A stretch of DNA of 64,000 nt from Escherichia coli. Lineage in GTDB: Bacteria; Pseudomonadota; Gammaproteobacteria; Enterobacterales; Enterobacteriaceae. Made by a program: the position numbers and the translations under genes. The notes beneath the pieces were generated by a model. It did no database searches. It was given only the letters and a program-made list of their open reading frames with translations, and was not told the DNA's origin. Location of the stretch: assembly GCF_003019035.1 (NCBI RefSeq), contig NZ_CP027447.1, one strand, 5' to 3'. This document shows positions 57,122-64,000 of this stretch, one piece after another (position 1 is the stretch's first letter; every line of letters begins with the position of its first letter).

Positions 57122-58273
57122 TTACCAGGCGGTATGGTAAAGCTCTACAATATCCTCAAGCGTTGCTTCACGCGGGTTGCCACCGGTACAAACATCATCC
57201 AGTGCCGCCTGCGCCAGTGCCGGAATGTCTTCCTTGCGTACACCAACATCACGCAAATGTGGCGGAATACCGACATCACGGTTGAGAGCAAACACCGCTT
57301 CAACAGCGGCATTACGCGCCTCTTCCAGGCTCATACCTTCCACTTTCACGCCCATAACGCGCGCGATATCGCGGTACTTCTCACCGGTAAAGTCAGCGTT
57401 ATAGCGCATGACATGCGGTAACAGGATGGCATTCGCAACACCGTGTGGCGTGTTGTAAAACGCGCCCAGTGGATGCGCCATACCATGCACCAACCCTAAC
57501 CCAACATTCGAGAAGCCCATACCCGCAACATACTGCCCGAGCGCCATTTCTTCTCCGGCATCCTTATCACCAGCAACCGATCCTCGCAGCGCCCCAGCAA
57601 TGATTTCAATCGCTTTAATGTGCAGTGCATCGGTTAGCGCCCACGCGCCACGGGTAATATACCCCTCAATAGCATGAGTGAGCGCATCGACACCCGTCGC
57701 GGCTTTCAGCGCTGGAGGCATACCATCCATCATGTCAGCGTCAATAAACGCCACCTGCGGGATATCATGCGGATCAACGCAAACAAACTTGCGCCGTTTT
57801 TCTTCGTCAGTGATCACGTAGTTAATGGTCACTTCTGCCGCAGTGCCTGCTGTGGTGGGGATTGCCAGAATCGGTACACTGGGTTTATTGGTCGGGGAAA
57901 GCCCTTCCAGGCTACGCACATCGGCAAACTCCGGATTGTTGCTGATAATGCCAATCGCTTTACAAGTATCCTGTGGAGAACCGCCACCAATAGCGATCAG
58001 GTAATCCGCGCCGCTATTCTGGAATACATCGAGCCCTTCTTTAACGACAGTAATTGTTGGGTTAGGTACTACGCCGTCGTAAATCTCCCATGCCAGTCCT
58101 GCCGCATCCATCTTATCGGTCACTTTCGCCACCACGCCGCATTGCACCAGCGTTTTATCGGTGACGATCAGCGCCTTCTGATAACCACGGCGTTTCACTT
58201 CATCGGTTAAAGCCCCAACAGCCCCCCGACCAAACCATGCCGTTTCGTTCAGAATCATTCTGTTAGCCATCAT
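57122..58273 (-). CDS. fucO: L-1,2-propanediol oxidoreductase (lactaldehyde reductase)
   Basis: 383-aa iron-containing alcohol dehydrogenase ORF MMANRMILNETAWFGRGAVGAL... Confidence 0.96.
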   Translation of the reverse strand: MMANRMILNETAWFGRGAVGALTDEVKRRGYQKALIVTDKTLVQCGVVAKVTDKMDAAGLAWEIYDGVVPNPTITVVKEGLDVFQNSGADYLIAIGGGSPQDTCKAIGIISNNPEFADVRSLEGLSPTNKPSVPILAIPTTAGTAAEVTINYVITDEEKRRKFVCVDPHDIPQVAFIDADMMDGMPPALKAATGVDALTHAIEGYITRGAWALTDALHIKAIEIIAGALRGSVAGDKDAGEEMALGQYVAGMGFSNVGLGLVHGMAHPLGAFYNTPHGVANAILLPHVMRYNADFTGEKYRDIARVMGVKVEGMSLEEARNAAVEAVFALNRDVGIPPHLRDVGVRKEDIPALAQAALDDVCTGGNPREATLEDIVELYHTAW

Positions 58274-58297: not shown

Positions 58298-58945
58298 TTA
58301 CTCTTCAATCCGTAACCCGTAGGTTTTGAATTTCTCCAGCACTACGGCAATCTCTTCATCGCTCAGCACTGGCACCGGGTCCGTAATCGCCAGGGTCGTC
58401 AGGTAAAGTTGTGCCAGCACTTCAACTTCATGCGCCAGCCATAACGCTTTCTCCAGATTCGCCTCACAAGCGATAAGCCCATGATGTTGTAACAAAGTTG
58501 CCTTACGATTTTTGAGAGCCAGCGCAACATGTTCAGAAAGTTCGCGTGTTCCAAAGGTCGCATAAGGCGCGCAAGGAATAGAATTACCGCCAGCCGCCGC
58601 AATCATGTAGTGAATAGCGGGGATCGGTCGGTTAAGAATGGAAACTGCCGTACAATGAACGGCATGATTGTGAACAACCGCGTTGGCATCCGGTCTGCTT
58701 TGATAGGCCGCCATATGGAAACGCCACTCGCTTGAGGGGAGTTTTCCTTCCTCATGTTTGCCGTTGCCATCAACATAGACAATCATATTCTCCGTCATTC
58801 TTTCATAAGGAATACCGCTGGGAGTAATCAACATGCCGTTTTCAAAACGTGTGCTGACATTCCCCGCTGTCCCCTGATTTAACCCAAGGCGCGTCATTTC
58901 CAGACAGGTTTCAATTATTTCACGGGATAAACGTGTTCTTTCCAT
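58298..58945 (-). CDS. fucA: L-fuculose-phosphate aldolase
   Basis: 215-aa class II aldolase ORF MERTRLSREIIETCLEMTRLGLNQGTAGNVS... Confidence 0.96.
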   Translation of the reverse strand: MERTRLSREIIETCLEMTRLGLNQGTAGNVSTRFENGMLITPSGIPYERMTENMIVYVDGNGKHEEGKLPSSEWRFHMAAYQSRPDANAVVHNHAVHCTAVSILNRPIPAIHYMIAAAGGNSIPCAPYATFGTRELSEHVALALKNRKATLLQHHGLIACEANLEKALWLAHEVEVLAQLYLTTLAITDPVPVLSDEEIAVVLEKFKTYGLRIEE

Positions 58946-59077
58946 TTCTATTCTCCAGATACAGTTTCAGCTCGCCTTGTTGCGTAAAACAGCACCGCAA
59001 ATGAAGACGGGGTTATTTTTAGTAAGGGGAGGCCACTGAATATCAGTGTTCAGTAGCCTGATATCTTTTGCCGATTA

Positions 59078-60076
59078 TTATTTTTTTCTTATGCGCTTAA
59101 TTAATTTCATTTCTACTTTGACTGTTTTTTTGACTGGTCTTTCTTCGATCGCGCTTAACATCATTTCGAACGCTTTTTCTGCCCAGGCATTTTCATCCTG
59201 CTGCATTGACCAGACATTGTTGGCGAGAAATCCCAGCATAGGATGTTCATCGAAAGTGCCAATATTGATTTCTGGCGGTACAGCGCCAAGACGGTCGCGA
59301 ATCGCGCGGACAGCGCCTTCAAGCACAGGTAAAGACGAGGCGATAAATGCCTGCGGACATCCCTGCTCTTCAATGAGTTTTTCCATAATGACATAGCCGC
59401 CTTCCGGAGTATTTACCGGACCTTCCCGCACCCAATCGCGATGGGTAATCCCTTTTTTTGCCAACGCATTCAAATAACCTGTCAGACGATCGCTGATACT
59501 CGGCAAACCGGCATCTCCCAGCAAAAACCATACTGGAGCCTGCCCGGCCTCAAGAATATTTTGCGTCAGCTTTTCTCCGCCAGAAATATTATTACTCTCT
59601 ACCAATGCGTTATCGGTATATTTAAAATCACGATCGAGTAAAACCATTGGCTTACGAATTTTGCGTAAATGATGCTGCTGATTTTCCAGCGTCGAAGGAA
59701 CAATAAAAAGACCATCAACATTTCGTGCGATAAATGCTTTCGTCAATTTATTTTCATAGTCAACATCATCATAAGTACAACTGATCGTAAGTTGATATCC
59801 GGAACGTCGACAGCGTTGTTCGAGTTTTTCTGCCAGCGTAGCAAAAAAGACGTTGGATATGTTGGGAACAATCAACCCTAATGTATCAGTTTTGTTAAGC
59901 TTAAGGCTGCGAGCGGAATGATTAATGATATAACCATAGCGTTCAACATATTCATTGATACGCGTTTGGGTTTTGACGCTGATTCGATATTGTTCCGCTT
60001 TTCCATTTAGCACCAGTCGCACGGTCGTAACCGATAAATTCAGGTCGCTGGCTATCTGCTCTACTGTTTTAGCCAT
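59078..60076 (-). CDS. LacI-family transcriptional regulator
   Basis: 332-aa ORF with N-terminal HTH (MAKTVEQIASDLNLSVTTVRLVLNG) and periplasmic-binding-fold effector domain. Confidence 0.85.
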   Translation of the reverse strand: MAKTVEQIASDLNLSVTTVRLVLNGKAEQYRISVKTQTRINEYVERYGYIINHSARSLKLNKTDTLGLIVPNISNVFFATLAEKLEQRCRRSGYQLTISCTYDDVDYENKLTKAFIARNVDGLFIVPSTLENQQHHLRKIRKPMVLLDRDFKYTDNALVESNNISGGEKLTQNILEAGQAPVWFLLGDAGLPSISDRLTGYLNALAKKGITHRDWVREGPVNTPEGGYVIMEKLIEEQGCPQAFIASSLPVLEGAVRAIRDRLGAVPPEINIGTFDEHPMLGFLANNVWSMQQDENAWAEKAFEMMLSAIEERPVKKTVKVEMKLIKRIRKK

Positions 60077-60140
60077 AGGTATTTCCCAGTTAACATCCAG
60101 ACGTCAAATCACAATCATAAAAGTATTTTCAACTTTTGTC

Positions 60141-61721
60141 TTATTGCATCAGTTGGTTAACCGCCTGTTGTTGCTCCCAAAGCGTCAGGTAAACCCGGTA
60201 TTTACGCTCTAAAAATTCACGGCGTTGTGGATTTACCTGAATAACCTCTCCGGCCTCAACCATTGCTTTACACGCAGATGTAAAATCCCCCCATGCTCCG
60301 CTGGCAACAGCGCCGCTAATTGCTGCGCCCAACGTAACGGCATCTTCTTCTTGCATCAGGTGGATATCGCAACCTGTCACGTCTGCATATTCGCGTAGCC
60401 ATAAAGGGTTGTGCGTTGCACCACCACATAATGTTAATCGGGTAATGGTATGCCCATTTTCCCGCAGAGTTTCAATAATATGTCTGGTGCCAAAGGCTAT
60501 TGCCTGTAAAGTCGCAAGATAAAGCCGCGCGAGCTGATTTTCACCACGCTCCAGTGTTAAGCCATAAACACTGCCTCTGGCATCGGGCCGCGCTCGTGGC
60601 GAACGGTTGCCGTGATGATCGGCAAGCACATGTAAATTTCGTGTGGGTTCTGACTCGTTAGCTTCCAGGGCGGCTACCCATTCATTAATCAGTTGAATCG
60701 GATGACACCCGCGTTGCTGCGCCTTGTTAAAAAGATTTGCGCTTGCCCCGGACTCCTGAAGCGTCCACTCCACCAGCGCCCCTGCGGCGCTTTGCCCGCC
60801 TTCAGTTAGCCAGTAATTTGGCAACATGGCCGACCAGTATGGCCCCCAGACGCCAGGGGTGAATATTTCTTTTTCACTGCACAACATATGGCAATTCGAC
60901 GTTCCGCTTATCAATGCCAGCGTTCCTGATGGCTGCGCGCCAGCCAGCGCCATGCCACCGGCATGGGCATCAATCAAACCACTGGCCACGATAACATTGG
61001 TCGTTAATCCTAATTCTTCAGCAGCTGTGGCAGTTAAAGTTCCCACGGCAGCACCAGGCGGAAGAATTTCGGCGGGAATTCTTTCGAGCATGTCGGTCAG
61101 GTCTACCGATTCCAGTAAGCTATGGCTAAAGCGTTGTTCATGAGCCAGATAATTCCATTTACACGTTAGCGTGCACAATCCCGCGACGTCTCGCCCTGTT
61201 GCTTTCCAGACCAGAAAATCCGCCAGATCGAAAAAGCGATGAGCGGCCTGCCAGGTTTGCGGTAGATGCGTCTTCAACCAACGTAACTTTGGTAACTCCA
61301 TCTCGACGCTCACTTCGCCGCCAACGTAGCGCAATGCGGGATCCTTCGTTGCGTTAATCTGCGCCGTCTCGACAGTTGCACGATGATCCATCCACATAAT
61401 AATGTCGTGATTCGCAGATCCACCGGACGAAACCGCTAAACCCTGGCCTTGTTCATCAAGAACAACCAGCGAGCAGGTAGCGTCAAAACCCAGTGAGCGA
61501 ATTGCGGAAATGGGGATGCCTGCCAAAGCTGTCGCCTCTTTCACCGTTTTACAAACTTGTTGCCAGATCTCTGCCGAAGACTGTTCGACACGCTCGCCGC
61601 CAGGGCGAAACTGGGAGACGGGCGCAGTAGCGAATGCCAGCCTGTGGCCACTGGCACTGTAAACGCCTGCCCTGACACTGGCCGATCCGACATCGACACC
61701 GAGAAAATAACCGTTGTGCAT
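60141..61721 (-). CDS. FGGY-family sugar (pentulose-type) kinase
   Basis: Frame of ORF 60141-61769; likely start MHNGYFLGVDVGSASVRAGVY (FGGY N-terminal motif); C-terminal GGATHNPLW region. Confidence 0.82.
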   Translation of the reverse strand: MHNGYFLGVDVGSASVRAGVYSASGHRLAFATAPVSQFRPGGERVEQSSAEIWQQVCKTVKEATALAGIPISAIRSLGFDATCSLVVLDEQGQGLAVSSGGSANHDIIMWMDHRATVETAQINATKDPALRYVGGEVSVEMELPKLRWLKTHLPQTWQAAHRFFDLADFLVWKATGRDVAGLCTLTCKWNYLAHEQRFSHSLLESVDLTDMLERIPAEILPPGAAVGTLTATAAEELGLTTNVIVASGLIDAHAGGMALAGAQPSGTLALISGTSNCHMLCSEKEIFTPGVWGPYWSAMLPNYWLTEGGQSAAGALVEWTLQESGASANLFNKAQQRGCHPIQLINEWVAALEANESEPTRNLHVLADHHGNRSPRARPDARGSVYGLTLERGENQLARLYLATLQAIAFGTRHIIETLRENGHTITRLTLCGGATHNPLWLREYADVTGCDIHLMQEEDAVTLGAAISGAVASGAWGDFTSACKAMVEAGEVIQVNPQRREFLERKYRVYLTLWEQQQAVNQLMQ

Positions 61722-61774
61722 AAAGCCTCCCTGACGCTGGAGATAACGGGGATGAGAATTCATCCCCAATTTTT

Positions 61775-62725
61775 TTATTTCTTACCGAATGGGTGCAGGA
61801 GTTTGTCGATTTCTGGCGTGTTAATATTCTCGGCATTAACAAATTTCACGGGAATATCGATCTCTTTTTCAACGGCTTGCCCCGAAAGGGCCGCGTTCAA
61901 CGTTTTGATCCCTTGATAGCCAATCTGGTATGCATCCTGAACAACAAAGCCCTGAATGACCCCGTTCTTCAGGAAGTTAATAATCGCTTCCGTACTATCA
62001 AAACCAATGACCTTCACCTTACCTTTCAGATTCTGGCTATCAATGGCATTCGCCACCCCGAGCGTTGAACCTTCATTGGTGCCATAGATCCCAGCAAGAT
62101 CGGGATTGGCCTGAATCATATCGATAGTTTTATCCATCGCTTTTTGCGGGTCACCATCGCTGTACTGAACGGGTAAGACTTTAATGTCAGGATATTTTTC
62201 TTTCATACGCTCCATGAAGCCTTCCGAGCGTTCAATAGCGGAAGATGTTCCTGCAACGTGCGCGATAATCCCAACTTTCCCTTTATTATTTACCTGCGCA
62301 GCTAAGGCATCAGCTGCCTGAGCACCTGCTTTACGGTTATTGGTGGCGACAAAACTCACCGGAATGTCTGAATTGATGCCTGAATCAAAGGTCACCACTT
62401 TGATACCGCGTGAATTTGCCGTTTCTACCAGTGGGGCGAGCGCATTCGCGTCGAGGGCTGCCAGAAGCAAGCCATTCGGTTTCTGCGCCATCGCATTTTC
62501 GACTAACTGAATTTGCTCGGCTATTTGCGTTTCATCAGCCGGGCCAACATAGCTGGTTTTATCCCCCAACTCTTTAGCCGCAGCTTCAGTCCCCATTTTT
62601 ACGGTTTGCCAGAATTCATGTTGGAAACCTTTACTAACAACCGGAAGATTTAAATCCTTCGCCAGTGCGCTGGAAGTTACGCAGGCCAGCAGAGATAACG
62701 CATAGATAAAATGCCTGGTTTTCAT
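61775..62725 (-). CDS. Periplasmic sugar-binding protein of ABC transporter (RbsB-like)
   Basis: Frame of ORF 61775-62848; start at MKTRHFIYALSLLACVTSSALA (signal peptide); type I periplasmic binding fold. Confidence 0.82.
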   Translation of the reverse strand: MKTRHFIYALSLLACVTSSALAKDLNLPVVSKGFQHEFWQTVKMGTEAAAKELGDKTSYVGPADETQIAEQIQLVENAMAQKPNGLLLAALDANALAPLVETANSRGIKVVTFDSGINSDIPVSFVATNNRKAGAQAADALAAQVNNKGKVGIIAHVAGTSSAIERSEGFMERMKEKYPDIKVLPVQYSDGDPQKAMDKTIDMIQANPDLAGIYGTNEGSTLGVANAIDSQNLKGKVKVIGFDSTEAIINFLKNGVIQGFVVQDAYQIGYQGIKTLNAALSGQAVEKEIDIPVKFVNAENINTPEIDKLLHPFGKK

Positions 62726-62798
62726 TGTTGTACTCCGTTCTGAGTGAATCACCCTTAACGTCAGGGCAGTTGTTTCCCGATAAAACAGGGAGCCTAAG

Positions 62799-63782
62799 TC
62801 AACGAATCTTTTTGCGTAATGTATCGAGGTAAACGGCAGCGACCACAACGACGCCCATCGCGACCATTTGCCAGAACTGGGAGACGCCCATTAAATTGAG
62901 GCCATTTTTCAGTACACTCATAATGAAAGCGCCAATGATTGTGCCGCCAATAGTGCCAATACCGCCCATTAAGCTGGTTCCGCCAATCACTACCGCGGCA
63001 ATAGCTTCCAGTTCATAACCCACACCTACCGTCGGTTGTCCGGAGTTGAGACGAGATGCCAGAATGACACCTGCAATCCCCGTTAATAATCCACAGAAGG
63101 CATAGACGAAAATTTTCACGCGCTGAACTTTAATACCAGAAAGATGAGCAGCAACTTCATTACTGCCTACGGCATAGACATAGCGACCAATGACGGTTTT
63201 CTTCAGGATGTAAGCGCCGACAAGCGCTACAATGACAAGGTAGAAAACAGGATAAGGCAGCACATCAAATAAGCGTCCCTGAGCGAGCGTTTTGAACATC
63301 GGGTAATCGGCAAAATAGATGGCGCGCCCGTCAGTCATCACCATATTGATACCTCTGACGGACATCATCAGGCCCAACGTAGCGATAAACGGTGGAATGG
63401 TCATTTTAGTGACCAACAAACCATTCACATAGCCGCACAATCCACCGGCCAAAACACCAGCAATAATACACACAGGCAGCGGCAGGCCCAGCGTGGCGCA
63501 AATACCTACGGCGACACCAGAAAAAGCCACCACGGAGCCCAATGAAAGATCGATGCCAGCGGTAATAATGACGAAAGTTACCCCAATGGCCATAATGCCG
63601 ATTACCGACGTTTGTAGAGCAATCGTCATGATATTTTCGGTATTAAAGAAAAAGGGAGAGCTGAAACTAAAAAATAGCACCAATATAATTAAGCTAAAAA
63701 GAGGTGCAAGGCGCATCAAAAGTTCTTTATTTATCTTTATTTTCTTATTATTACTGTCTGGAGAGGTTACAGAGATAGTCAT
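62799..63782 (-). CDS. ABC sugar transporter permease (RbsC-like)
   Basis: 327-aa multi-TM ORF with branched-chain/sugar permease signature (GGIDLSLGSV). Confidence 0.85.
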   Translation of the reverse strand: MTISVTSPDSNNKKIKINKELLMRLAPLFSLIILVLFFSFSSPFFFNTENIMTIALQTSVIGIMAIGVTFVIITAGIDLSLGSVVAFSGVAVGICATLGLPLPVCIIAGVLAGGLCGYVNGLLVTKMTIPPFIATLGLMMSVRGINMVMTDGRAIYFADYPMFKTLAQGRLFDVLPYPVFYLVIVALVGAYILKKTVIGRYVYAVGSNEVAAHLSGIKVQRVKIFVYAFCGLLTGIAGVILASRLNSGQPTVGVGYELEAIAAVVIGGTSLMGGIGTIGGTIIGAFIMSVLKNGLNLMGVSQFWQMVAMGVVVVAAVYLDTLRKKIR

Positions 63783-63785
63783 AAT

Positions 63786-64000
63786 TTAATCCTCTAACGT
63801 CGCGTATTGCATGATTTTTTCTTGTGTCGCTTCATTTGCGCTAAGTTCGCCAGTAATTCGACCACTGCGCATCACTAAAATACGGTCGCACATTCCTAAC
63901 ACCTCTGGCAATTCAGAGGAGATCATGATGATTGATTTCCCTTTTGCCACCAGGCGATTCATTAACTCATAGATTTCCAGTTTGGCGCCAACATCAATGC
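63786..64000 (-). CDS. ABC transporter ATP-binding protein, C-terminal fragment (runs off window)
   Basis: Hand translation of minus strand: ...[64 protein letters not shown]-stop (stop is complement of 63786-63788); typical end of the second nucleotide-binding domain of RbsA-like ATPases. Not in ORF track (no start in window). Confidence 0.75.

Follow-up and report, generated by a model that had tools for sequence, protein, structure and literature searches.

Locus and question

The K-12 fuc regulon comprises fucPIKUR and fucAO, activated by the DeoR-type regulator FucR and CRP. The window analyzed here, a stretch of 64,000 nucleotides of Escherichia coli DNA, carries fucO and fucA followed by genes for a sugar transporter, a kinase and a LacI-family regulator. 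The question is whether these genes are foreign DNA that has broken the fucose regulon or belong to another form of the same locus. The locus is an alternative, cassette-type fucose allele, the L-fucose/D-arabinose (darK) cluster of E. coli B. It is ordinary and has been published before, both as the darK cluster of E. coli B (Elsinghorst & Mortlock 1994) and as the "Variant 2" fucose operon (Saif 2023) (PMC12307932, PMC10221146, PMC6150544). We have good confidence in the explanation as a whole, in which a darK-type allele, ABC import, LacI-family control, fucAO on the cassette transcript and an old recombining allele are taken jointly.

Gene content and order

The window was 100% identical to sequence of E. 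coli SCU-301, whose annotated record supplied the gene order. All genes in this part of the window lie on the minus strand. In agreement with the first-pass annotation, fucO (lactaldehyde reductase; 57122..58270; E. coli-type allele, 98.3% nucleotide identity to K-12) and fucA (L-fuculose-phosphate aldolase; 58298..58945; mosaic) were present and intact. The gap between the fucA start and the regulator stop is exactly the 132 nt given there (58946..59077). It is followed by the gene of the LacI-family regulator (332 aa; 59078..60076), darK, encoding an FGGY-family pentulose kinase (D-ribulokinase, TIGR01315; 526 aa; 60141..61721; 98.0% nucleotide identity to the BL21(DE3) gene), and the genes of a CUT2-type ABC transporter. 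These encode the periplasmic sugar-binding protein (316 aa; 61775..62725), the permease (327 aa; 62799..63782; RbsC/AraH-like, below equivalog cutoffs), and the fused two-domain sugar ABC ATPase, of which the 3' end (last 71 codons) is in the window (63786..64000) and the full 499-aa gene reaches window-equivalent position 65285. All five genes had been listed before, as an operon convergent on fucA; they are on the same strand and run head-to-tail into it.

The K-12 gene order expected in the annotation (fucO-fucA, then divergent fucPIKUR) was correct. Of the fucP-fucI-fucK side, reported as absent, only fucP is missing: it was not found in the window, in 20 kb beyond it, or anywhere in 48 kb of context. 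The ATPase gene is followed by 469 bp of intergenic DNA and then by intact fucI (start at window-equivalent 65755, 1.75 kb beyond the window end), fucK, fucU and fucR. BL21(DE3) has the same cassette (98.9% nucleotide identity over 6,677 bp) and likewise no fucP. The five-gene cassette, its place and the absence of fucP are thus shared with the E. coli B darK cluster; the difference is in fucA, which is intact in the window strain and interrupted (fucA::IS1) in the laboratory B lineage.

Extent of the replacement and its borders

Compared to K-12, the five-gene cassette takes the place of fucP and the 546-bp K-12 control region alone, and outside the replaced segment fucI, fucK, fucU, fucA and fucO are 98–99% identical to K-12 at the nucleotide level. 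The suggestion of a replacement or insertion event therefore holds for the swap of fucP and the fucA-fucP control region, but the incoming DNA is not evidently foreign. Elsinghorst and Mortlock reportedly deduced from a restriction map in 1994 that there was a 5.2-kb insertion between fucA and fucP; in the sequence analyzed here, by contrast, fucP is replaced and the net gain relative to K-12 is 4,914 bp.

The left breakpoint had been sought in the 58946-59077 spacer by alignment to K-12. This position was rejected, since homology is already lost within fucA, where divergence starts ~170 nt inside the gene. The 3' part of fucA (58298 to ~58745) is 97.8% identical to K-12, and the 5' part (~58775–58945, codons 1 to ~57) is 77% identical to K-12, 100% to BL21 and 90.6% to E. 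whittamii. This change from K-12-like to diverged sequence places the left recombination breakpoint inside fucA, at ~58745–58775, about codon 57. The right breakpoint is inside fucI, at about codon 5. Within E. coli, the allele would have spread by homologous recombination through fucA and fucI. The replacement must alter fuc regulation.

Transcription of fucAO

In K-12, fucAO has its own divergent promoter, whereas here it lies downstream of five extra genes. The 132-nt spacer contains the fucA ribosome-binding site (GGAGAA) and is not homologous to the sequence upstream of fucA in K-12. No sigma-70-like promoter match was found on its minus strand by a simple consensus scan, in which hits overall did not exceed those in shuffled controls. 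Only 24–25 nt separate the regulator gene from fucA in Lelliottia, Huaxiibacter and E. hormaechei. Judged from these features, fucAO is probably co-transcribed with the cassette: fucA and fucO, having lost their own FucR-dependent promoter, would be read as the tail of a transporter-darK-regulator transcript.

The longer E. coli spacer, with its two hairpins, may nevertheless hold an internal promoter or a partial terminator before fucA. Hairpin 1 (59030..59059, minus strand) has an 11-bp stem (AGGCUACUGAA/UUCAGUGGCCU), an 8-nt loop and no U-tract, with a few compensatory changes across Escherichia and Citrobacter. Hairpin 2 (58973..59009, minus strand; CGUCUU...UUGCG / CGCAA...AAGGCG) lies just upstream of the fucA ribosome-binding site and is conserved in both genera. 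A functional RNA element in the spacer was considered and rejected as a claim, as the fold (z = −2.2) and the covariation (compensatory changes in 3/31 pairs, 5 sequences) were too weak. An Rfam scan (E ≤ 1) of the cassette and both non-coding regions gave no matches.

Control region upstream of fucI

The new locus resembles the K-12 regulon in having the same FucI, FucK, FucU, FucA and FucO, a divergent operon layout and, in both, likely CRP dependence. It differs in the lack of fucP and of ATGACCG boxes and in its 469-bp control region with LacI-type palindromes, for which no alignable homology to the K-12 control region was found. Of the ATGACCG boxes, candidate FucR sites, the K-12 control region has 4–5, and neither of the new non-coding regions (469 bp and 132 nt) has any.

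Two perfect 16-bp palindromes with a central CG (GCTAACTCGAGTTAGC) are located between the ATPase gene and fucI, beyond the window, as candidate operators O1 (65418–65433) and O2 (65657–65672). No further copies were found in 48 kb. Between them are a CRP-like half-site (65492–65507) and a CRP site, cGTGA-N6-TCACA (65597–65612), which is conserved and centered 61.5 bp upstream of the inferred fucI start. The BL21 control region is also 469 bp long, is 99.1% identical and has both operators. Across genera, almost every locus keeps the palindromes with 0–2 mismatches; in C. freundii M-21 and Atlantibacter, one of the two is degenerate or escaped detection, and Affinibrenneria has one clear and one degenerate copy. 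Their spacing is 239 bp in all loci but Atlantibacter (240 bp), with intergenic lengths of 410–623 bp.

The palindromes and the CRP site appear to mark a repressor-controlled divergent promoter region. The regulator aligned full-length to the FruR/ScrR, Cra, RbsR and PurR profiles, closest to the FruR/ScrR type and below the curated cutoff for each. This LacI-family protein would repress through both palindromes: O2 would overlap −10/+1 of the fucI promoter, with the CRP site at about −61.5, and O1 would lie downstream of the divergent transporter promoter. In a consensus scan for promoters and terminators, hits were no more numerous than in shuffled controls, and the promoter on the transporter side could not be located with confidence.

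We see an even chance that the fuller account is right. In it, a FruR-like LacI-family repressor with two operators at an invariant 239-bp spacing (possibly forming a DNA loop) and CRP replaced FucR, which became redundant and was lost in several genera; fucAO was fused to the transporter-darK-regulator transcript; and the two locus forms are an ancient cross-species polymorphism exchanged through intragenic fucA/fucI recombination. No description of such a regulatory architecture was found in the searchable literature.

Alternatively, FucR could still activate the fuc genes, with the LacI-family protein limited to the transporter and darK genes. This would suit the fucR gene, which is intact in SCU-301, annotated as intact in BL21 and present in Citrobacter loci, and the fucose induction that fucI retains in BL21 (PMC10221146). 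We nevertheless consider it unlikely, as the ATGACCG box is missing from both new non-coding regions and O2 lies on the inferred fucI promoter, not on the transporter promoter. Moreover, E. whittamii has lost fucR, with rlmM and fucU too close together to leave space for it, and no fucR was seen in the loci examined from Huaxiibacter, C. freundii M-21, Atlantibacter and Affinibrenneria, but the operators are kept (one of them degenerate in the last three). Also counted against it are observations that Elsinghorst and Mortlock are said to have made in 1988, namely that in E. coli B the free sugars induce, not fuculose-1-phosphate, and that constitutive mutants are also constitutive for D-ribulokinase.

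Transporter, kinase and substrates

DarK scored 532.5 bits against TIGR01315 (curated cutoff 408.7; profile positions 2–539 of 541) and fell below the cutoffs for L-ribulokinase AraB, xylulokinase, glycerol kinase and fuculokinase. The transporter has the CUT2 layout of a fused two-domain ATPase, a single permease and a type I periplasmic binding protein. Its 499-aa ATPase aligned end-to-end with RbsA, XylG and AraG, the permease resembles RbsC and AraH, and the binding protein resembles AlsB and RbsB. All transporter scores were below equivalog cutoffs, so it is none of the named Rbs/Ara/Als-type transporters. The best solved relatives of the binding protein are 4RXT, with a ligand that we take to be D-arabinose, and 4WUT, with D-fucose, of the enantiomer series opposite to L-fucose, which speaks against the substrates proposed here.

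Judged from its genomic context, the ABC transporter would take the role of FucP in importing L-fucose and its structural analogue D-arabinose. FucI would isomerize D-arabinose to D-ribulose, from which DarK would make D-ribulose-5-phosphate for the pentose phosphate pathway, and L-fucose would still pass through FucI, FucK, FucA and FucO. The function of DarK and the growth and induction phenotypes are taken from the literature. One paper treats DarK as inserted into the fucose locus (PMC12307932). Another places ECD_02649 between fucA and fucI and has BL21(DE3) growing on D-arabinose (PMC6150544), as REL606 does (PMC3446290), in both strains without mutation. Growth of BL21 and REL606 on L-fucose is poor or absent (PMC10221146, PMC3446290). 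This could mean that the ABC system imports fucose poorly, but the comparison is confounded by IS1, which splits fucA in the laboratory B lineage (BL21, REL606).

A different reading is that the transporter and kinase are dedicated to D-ribulose uptake, like Rbl of Citrobacter rodentium, with no transport of L-fucose or D-arabinose. Rbl likewise combines a CUT2-type ABC transporter with an FGGY D-ribulokinase feeding the pentose phosphate pathway (PMC12307932), the kinase here is also of the D-ribulokinase type, and the poor use of L-fucose by laboratory B strains points the same way. However, fucA::IS1 accounts for that phenotype; D-arabinose, on which B strains grow, has to be taken up before FucI can act on it (PMC6150544, PMC3446290); and fucP-negative, ABC-positive clinical isolates ferment fucose (PMC10221146). 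Rbl lies outside the fuc locus and includes a KpsF-like isomerase, DarK and RblK fall in separate clades, and rbl is absent from E. coli (Cottam et al. 2025, PMC12307932). In addition, the cassette sits exactly at the fucP position in every genus examined, where the fuc genes have no other locus-encoded importer, and fucP and the cassette are complementary in 5,422/5,426 genomes. We therefore regard dedicated D-ribulose uptake as quite unlikely and retain import of L-fucose and D-arabinose as the probable role.

Distribution and age of the allele

The cassette was found in 383 of the 5,426 complete E. coli genomes (7.1%), always chromosomal and single-copy, and fucP in 5,039; these are the counts that sum to 5,422. 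It is thus not a feature of all E. coli, and it occurs without fucP. In Saif 2023 (PMC10221146), "Variant 2" likewise has an ABC transporter for fucP, in 50/1,058 genomes (4.7%) and in 7.5% of isolates. The passages of that paper covered here are silent on the kinase, the LacI-family regulator and its operators, and equally on the missing FucR control region, the breakpoints inside genes and fucA::IS1 in its model strain BL21. The paper describes Citrobacter as mostly without a defined ABC transporter, whereas the complete cassette was found here in several Citrobacter species.

The identical locus form was found between xni and rlmM in E. whittamii, Citrobacter, Lelliottia, Huaxiibacter, Enterobacter, Atlantibacter and Affinibrenneria (at least seven genera). 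Cassette identity is 88–91% to E. whittamii and 72–83% to Citrobacter, and the flanking core genes match these values. By sequence comparison, the cassette-type locus is an old allele and no recent acquisition of foreign DNA.

The first-pass view of a recent foreign island inserted at the fucA promoter, with the fucose regulon disrupted, is very unlikely. In its favor, K-12 and 93% of E. coli genomes lack the cassette, the cassette has 47.0% GC against 50.3% for the window (regulator 43%, ATPase 44%), and D-arabinose utilization genes are among the B-specific regions in Yoon 2012, but K-12 fucP itself has 47.7% GC, the borders carry no mobility genes, repeats or tRNA and fall in homologous fucA and fucI sequence, the xni-rlmM position is common to seven other taxa with the same arrangement, divergence from E. 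whittamii and Citrobacter equals that of flanking core genes, E. coli cassette alleles (98.8–100% identical) are about as diverse as core genes, and fucIKUR and fucAO are intact, so that the regulon is rewired, not broken. None of the genomic-island hallmarks (mobility genes, flanking repeats or tRNA, atypical composition, discordant phylogeny) was seen at the cassette.

Meaning for E. coli

To the published arrangement, this analysis adds the fucA and fucI breakpoints, the conservation of the locus across genera, the loss of candidate FucR boxes, the palindromes with the CRP site and the probable co-transcription of fucAO. In the gut, fucose freed from mucin serves E. coli as a major nutrient and as a signal, and ~7% of strains, including BL21, REL606 and many clinical isolates, have a different fucose importer and very likely a different regulator. 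Strains with the cassette gain efficient use of D-arabinose. Laboratory B strains represent the phenotype of the variant poorly because IS1 inactivates their fucA. The practical consequences are modest: in annotation and metabolic models of strains with the cassette, the ABC system, not FucP, should count as the locus-encoded importer, and regulatory knowledge based on FucR in K-12 should not be carried over to them.

Gene order at the fuc locus

The window sequence is identical to the chromosome of Escherichia coli SCU-301, a human commensal isolate, and the ORF listing and the RefSeq annotation agreed on the gene coordinates. The minus strand carries fucO (57122–58270), fucA (58298–58945) and, past a 132-nt spacer (58946–59077), genes for a LacI-family regulator (59078–60076), an FGGY kinase (60141–61721), an ABC substrate-binding protein (61775–62725), a permease (62799–63782), and a two-domain ABC ATPase, of which the last 71 codons lie in the window (63786–64000). 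In the 48-kb context, the 5' end of the ATPase gene is at window-equivalent 65285 (the same numbering extended past 64000), followed by a 469-bp intergenic region, fucI, fucK, fucU, and fucR in their usual order and orientation, and rlmM. The K-12 order is xni, fucO-fucA, a 546-bp control region, fucP-fucI-fucK-fucU-fucR, and rlmM. Since fucIKUR is intact beyond the window, SCU-301 lacks only fucP and the control region of K-12; the fucA-fucI distance is 6,809 bp in SCU-301 versus 1,895 bp in K-12 (net gain 4,914 bp).

The first-pass annotation had listed the genes correctly, had measured 132 nt between the regulator stop and the fucA start, and had proposed a replacement or insertion relative to K-12, of which the replacement is real. 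It was mistaken in placing the five-gene cassette convergent on fucA, as the genes share the fucA strand and run head-to-tail into it, and in regarding fucPIKUR as missing.

Beyond the window (41772–47000 of L001, the fetched SCU-301 context), a five-gene accessory sugar cluster was found between three tRNA-Met genes and amiC, encoding a PRD-domain regulator, a PTS EIIC, and MalY/PatB-like, KpsF/GutQ-like isomerase, and phosphoglycerate dehydrogenase-like proteins; K-12 presumably has no such cluster at that position.

Breakpoints

Junctions were mapped by pairwise alignment with K-12 and 100-nt sliding identity. Identity to K-12 was 97–100% across fucO and the 3' two-thirds of fucA, and dropped to 82%, 76%, and 58% in sliding windows over the last 220 nt of fucA along the window. 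The left junction thus lies inside fucA, near codon 57 (approximately 58745–58775). Identity of the gene's 5' part is 77% with K-12, 100% with BL21, and 90.6% with Escherichia whittamii. The right junction is at approximately codon 5 of fucI. Neither the 132-nt spacer nor the 469-bp region aligned to K-12 at any point; the breakpoint suggested at 58946–59077 falls instead within fucA. Both borders thus lie in homologous coding sequence of fucA and fucI, which fits an allele swap by homologous recombination rather than site-specific insertion.

Distribution and origin

The cassette was present in 383 of 5,426 complete E. coli genomes, chromosomal and single-copy without exception, with 98.8–100% identity among nearly all carriers; one further record had a 6% partial match at 82% identity. 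K-12 fucP was found in 5,039 genomes of the same set. Together the two counts give 5,422, which fits a single locus with two alleles that exclude each other. In the pig isolate HNSQ2209 (NZ_CP137737.1, 1016054–1023929), the IS5-like element ISKpn26 is inserted in the cassette, meaning that the variant locus is occasionally inactivated.

For the cross-genus survey, one genome per species was scanned and all fuc and cassette proteins were then mapped. The shared order, in the same position across genera, was rlmM-(fucR)-fucU-fucK-fucI, ATPase-permease-binding protein-DarK (the kinase)-regulator-fucA-fucO, and xni. It was found in E. whittamii, at least eight Citrobacter genomes (C. youngae included), Lelliottia, Huaxiibacter, Enterobacter hormaechei subsp. 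hoffmannii, one C. freundii isolate, and Atlantibacter, and without the adjacent regulator in Affinibrenneria. Affinibrenneria salicis carries the whole locus twice on one scaffold (L019, L020), the copies lying approximately 150 kb from each other in opposite orientations; an adjacent LacI-family gene is missing from each, yet both putative operators described below are present.

A foreign origin of the cassette, as first proposed, had no evident support. Nucleotide identity of its genes (88–91% to E. whittamii, 72–83% to Citrobacter) equals that of the flanking xni, fucO, fucI, and rlmM, its GC content (47.0%) is near that of K-12 fucP (47.7%; window 50.3%), and neither mobility genes nor border repeats were detected at its borders in the 48-kb context annotation and repeat check. 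Together with the cross-genus position, these observations argue strongly against recent import; judged by its divergence, the cassette-type locus is an old form that diverged at the rate of the flanking core genes.

Control region and operators

The K-12 control region contains four exact copies of the 7-mer ATGACCG or its complement at approximately 30-bp intervals and, further downstream, a fifth copy of the 6-mer core only. ATGACCG is the most over-represented word in the region and was taken to be the putative FucR box; it is absent from both the 469-bp region and the 132-nt spacer. In the 469-bp region, the 16-bp palindrome GCTAACTCGAGTTAGC, with the central CG of LacI-family operators, instead occurs twice in perfect form, at window-equivalent 65418–65433 (putative operator O1) and 65657–65672 (O2). 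No further copy was found within 48 kb with up to three mismatches allowed. Both palindromes are kept with 0–2 mismatches in most related loci, the exceptions being C. freundii M-21 (one site detected) and Atlantibacter (four mismatches in the second site). Measured start to start, they lie 239 bp apart throughout, with Atlantibacter (240 bp) the only exception, despite intergenic lengths of 410 to 623 bp.

A predicted CRP site (cGTGA-N6-TCACA) is invariant in the multi-genus alignment. The candidate fucI promoter has a conserved TTGTGC-18 nt-TAAGCT as -35/-10; relative to the inferred fucI start, the predicted CRP site is centred 61.5 bp upstream, and O2 overlies the -10/+1 of this promoter. 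On the transporter side are O1 and a second conserved TGTGA half-site, the promoter there having no confident placement. Between O2 and fucI, a small UUCG-loop hairpin followed by a U/C-rich run resembles a terminator (L001 29688–29704; window-equivalent 65687–65703). It is seemingly partly conserved in Citrobacter, and could be a leader attenuator or stabiliser.

In E. whittamii (L004 1153–2299) fucR is deleted, leaving rlmM next to fucU, and no fucR was detected in the fetched loci of Huaxiibacter, C. freundii M-21, Atlantibacter, and Affinibrenneria (L014, L016, L017, L019); each of these five fucR-less loci has at least one clear LacI-type operator copy. Loss of the candidate FucR boxes, the conserved putative operators and CRP site, and the absence of fucR point to control of both divergent transcription units by the LacI-family repressor and CRP, with FucR redundant. 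Elsinghorst and Mortlock reportedly found in 1988 that the inducers in E. coli B are free sugars, not fuculose-1-phosphate, and that mutants were coordinately constitutive for the fucose enzymes and D-ribulokinase, which fits the repressor model. Citrobacter FucR is 77–83% identical to that of E. coli at the amino acid level, and the neighbouring proteins 90–93%.

Expression of fucAO

In Lelliottia, Huaxiibacter, and E. hormaechei, only 24–25 nt separate the regulator gene from fucA, and at this distance fucA must be co-transcribed with the cassette. The spacer measures 123–232 nt in E. coli and Citrobacter, where it has no U-tract terminator; a consensus scan of its coding strand gave no promoter-like match. 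The most economical reading is a probable seven-gene transcript, predicted as ATPase-permease-binding protein-darK-regulator-fucA-fucO. Two hairpins with limited covariation occur in the spacer and had no match in an Rfam search; speculatively, they may modulate processing or stability.

Kinase and transporter

DarK scored 532.5 bits against TIGR01315 (FGGY pentulose kinase; cutoff 408.7) and was under the cutoff for the L-ribulokinase, xylulokinase, glycerol kinase, and fuculokinase profiles. Homologues with 58–63% identity occur away from any fuc locus in Brenneria, Proteus, Photorhabdus, Xenorhabdus, Buttiauxella, and others (L021–L044), often with a related LacI-family gene (50–59% identity) approximately 8 kb downstream; these probably represent other pentulose or polyol utilisation contexts. 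The regulator is nearest to the FruR/ScrR subfamily of the LacI family, scoring below its cutoff.

The transporter is a CUT2-type monosaccharide ABC system resembling the ribose, arabinose, xylose, and allose systems, all below equivalog cutoffs. The solved proteins closest to its binding protein are 4RXT (E = 6e-55), reportedly a D-arabinose complex, and 4WUT (E = 2e-51), with D-fucose as ligand. Context argues for L-fucose and D-arabinose as substrates, because the transporter occupies the fucP position of the other allele in every genus examined, because all isolates, fucP-negative ones included, fermented fucose according to Saif et al. (PMC10221146), and because B strains can use D-arabinose for growth, a sugar that FucI can act on only after import.

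Published descriptions and the laboratory B strains

BL21(DE3), like other E. coli B derivatives, has the same cassette (98.9% identity over all 6,677 bp), with fucI directly past it and without fucP. The locus form is already known from published descriptions. D-arabinose utilisation genes were listed as B-specific by Yoon et al. 2012 (PMC3446290), with REL606 growing on D-arabinose and not on L-fucose. Kim et al. (PMC6150544) place ECD_02649 between fucA and fucI and report that BL21 grows on D-arabinose, and Cottam et al. describe DarK as inserted into the fucose locus. Among the Escherichia strains with such kinases studied by Cottam et al. (PMC12307932), who cite Elsinghorst & Mortlock 1994, DarK was the largest clade (50 of 96). 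Saif et al. (PMC10221146), whose type strain for the variant with an ABC transporter in place of fucP was BL21, found it in 50 of 1,058 genomes and, among clinical isolates, in 7.5%; they also saw fucI induced by fucose in BL21. The additions made here are incremental: the intragenic breakpoints, cross-genus conservation, loss of the putative FucR boxes, a conserved arrangement of two putative operators with a CRP site, and the probable co-transcription of fucAO with the cassette.

In the laboratory B lineage, fucA is split by IS1A (BL21(DE3), L003 2444–3868; B-RalR, L084 944–2368). The gene is intact in SCU-301 (58298–58945) and in FDAARGOS_1250, a human isolate whose cassette proteins are identical. 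Poor or absent growth of REL606 and BL21 on L-fucose has been ascribed to the lack of FucP (PMC3446290, PMC10221146). The disrupted fucA may be an equally good explanation, and fucA::IS1 thus confounds the published attribution of poor L-fucose growth of B strains to missing fucP.
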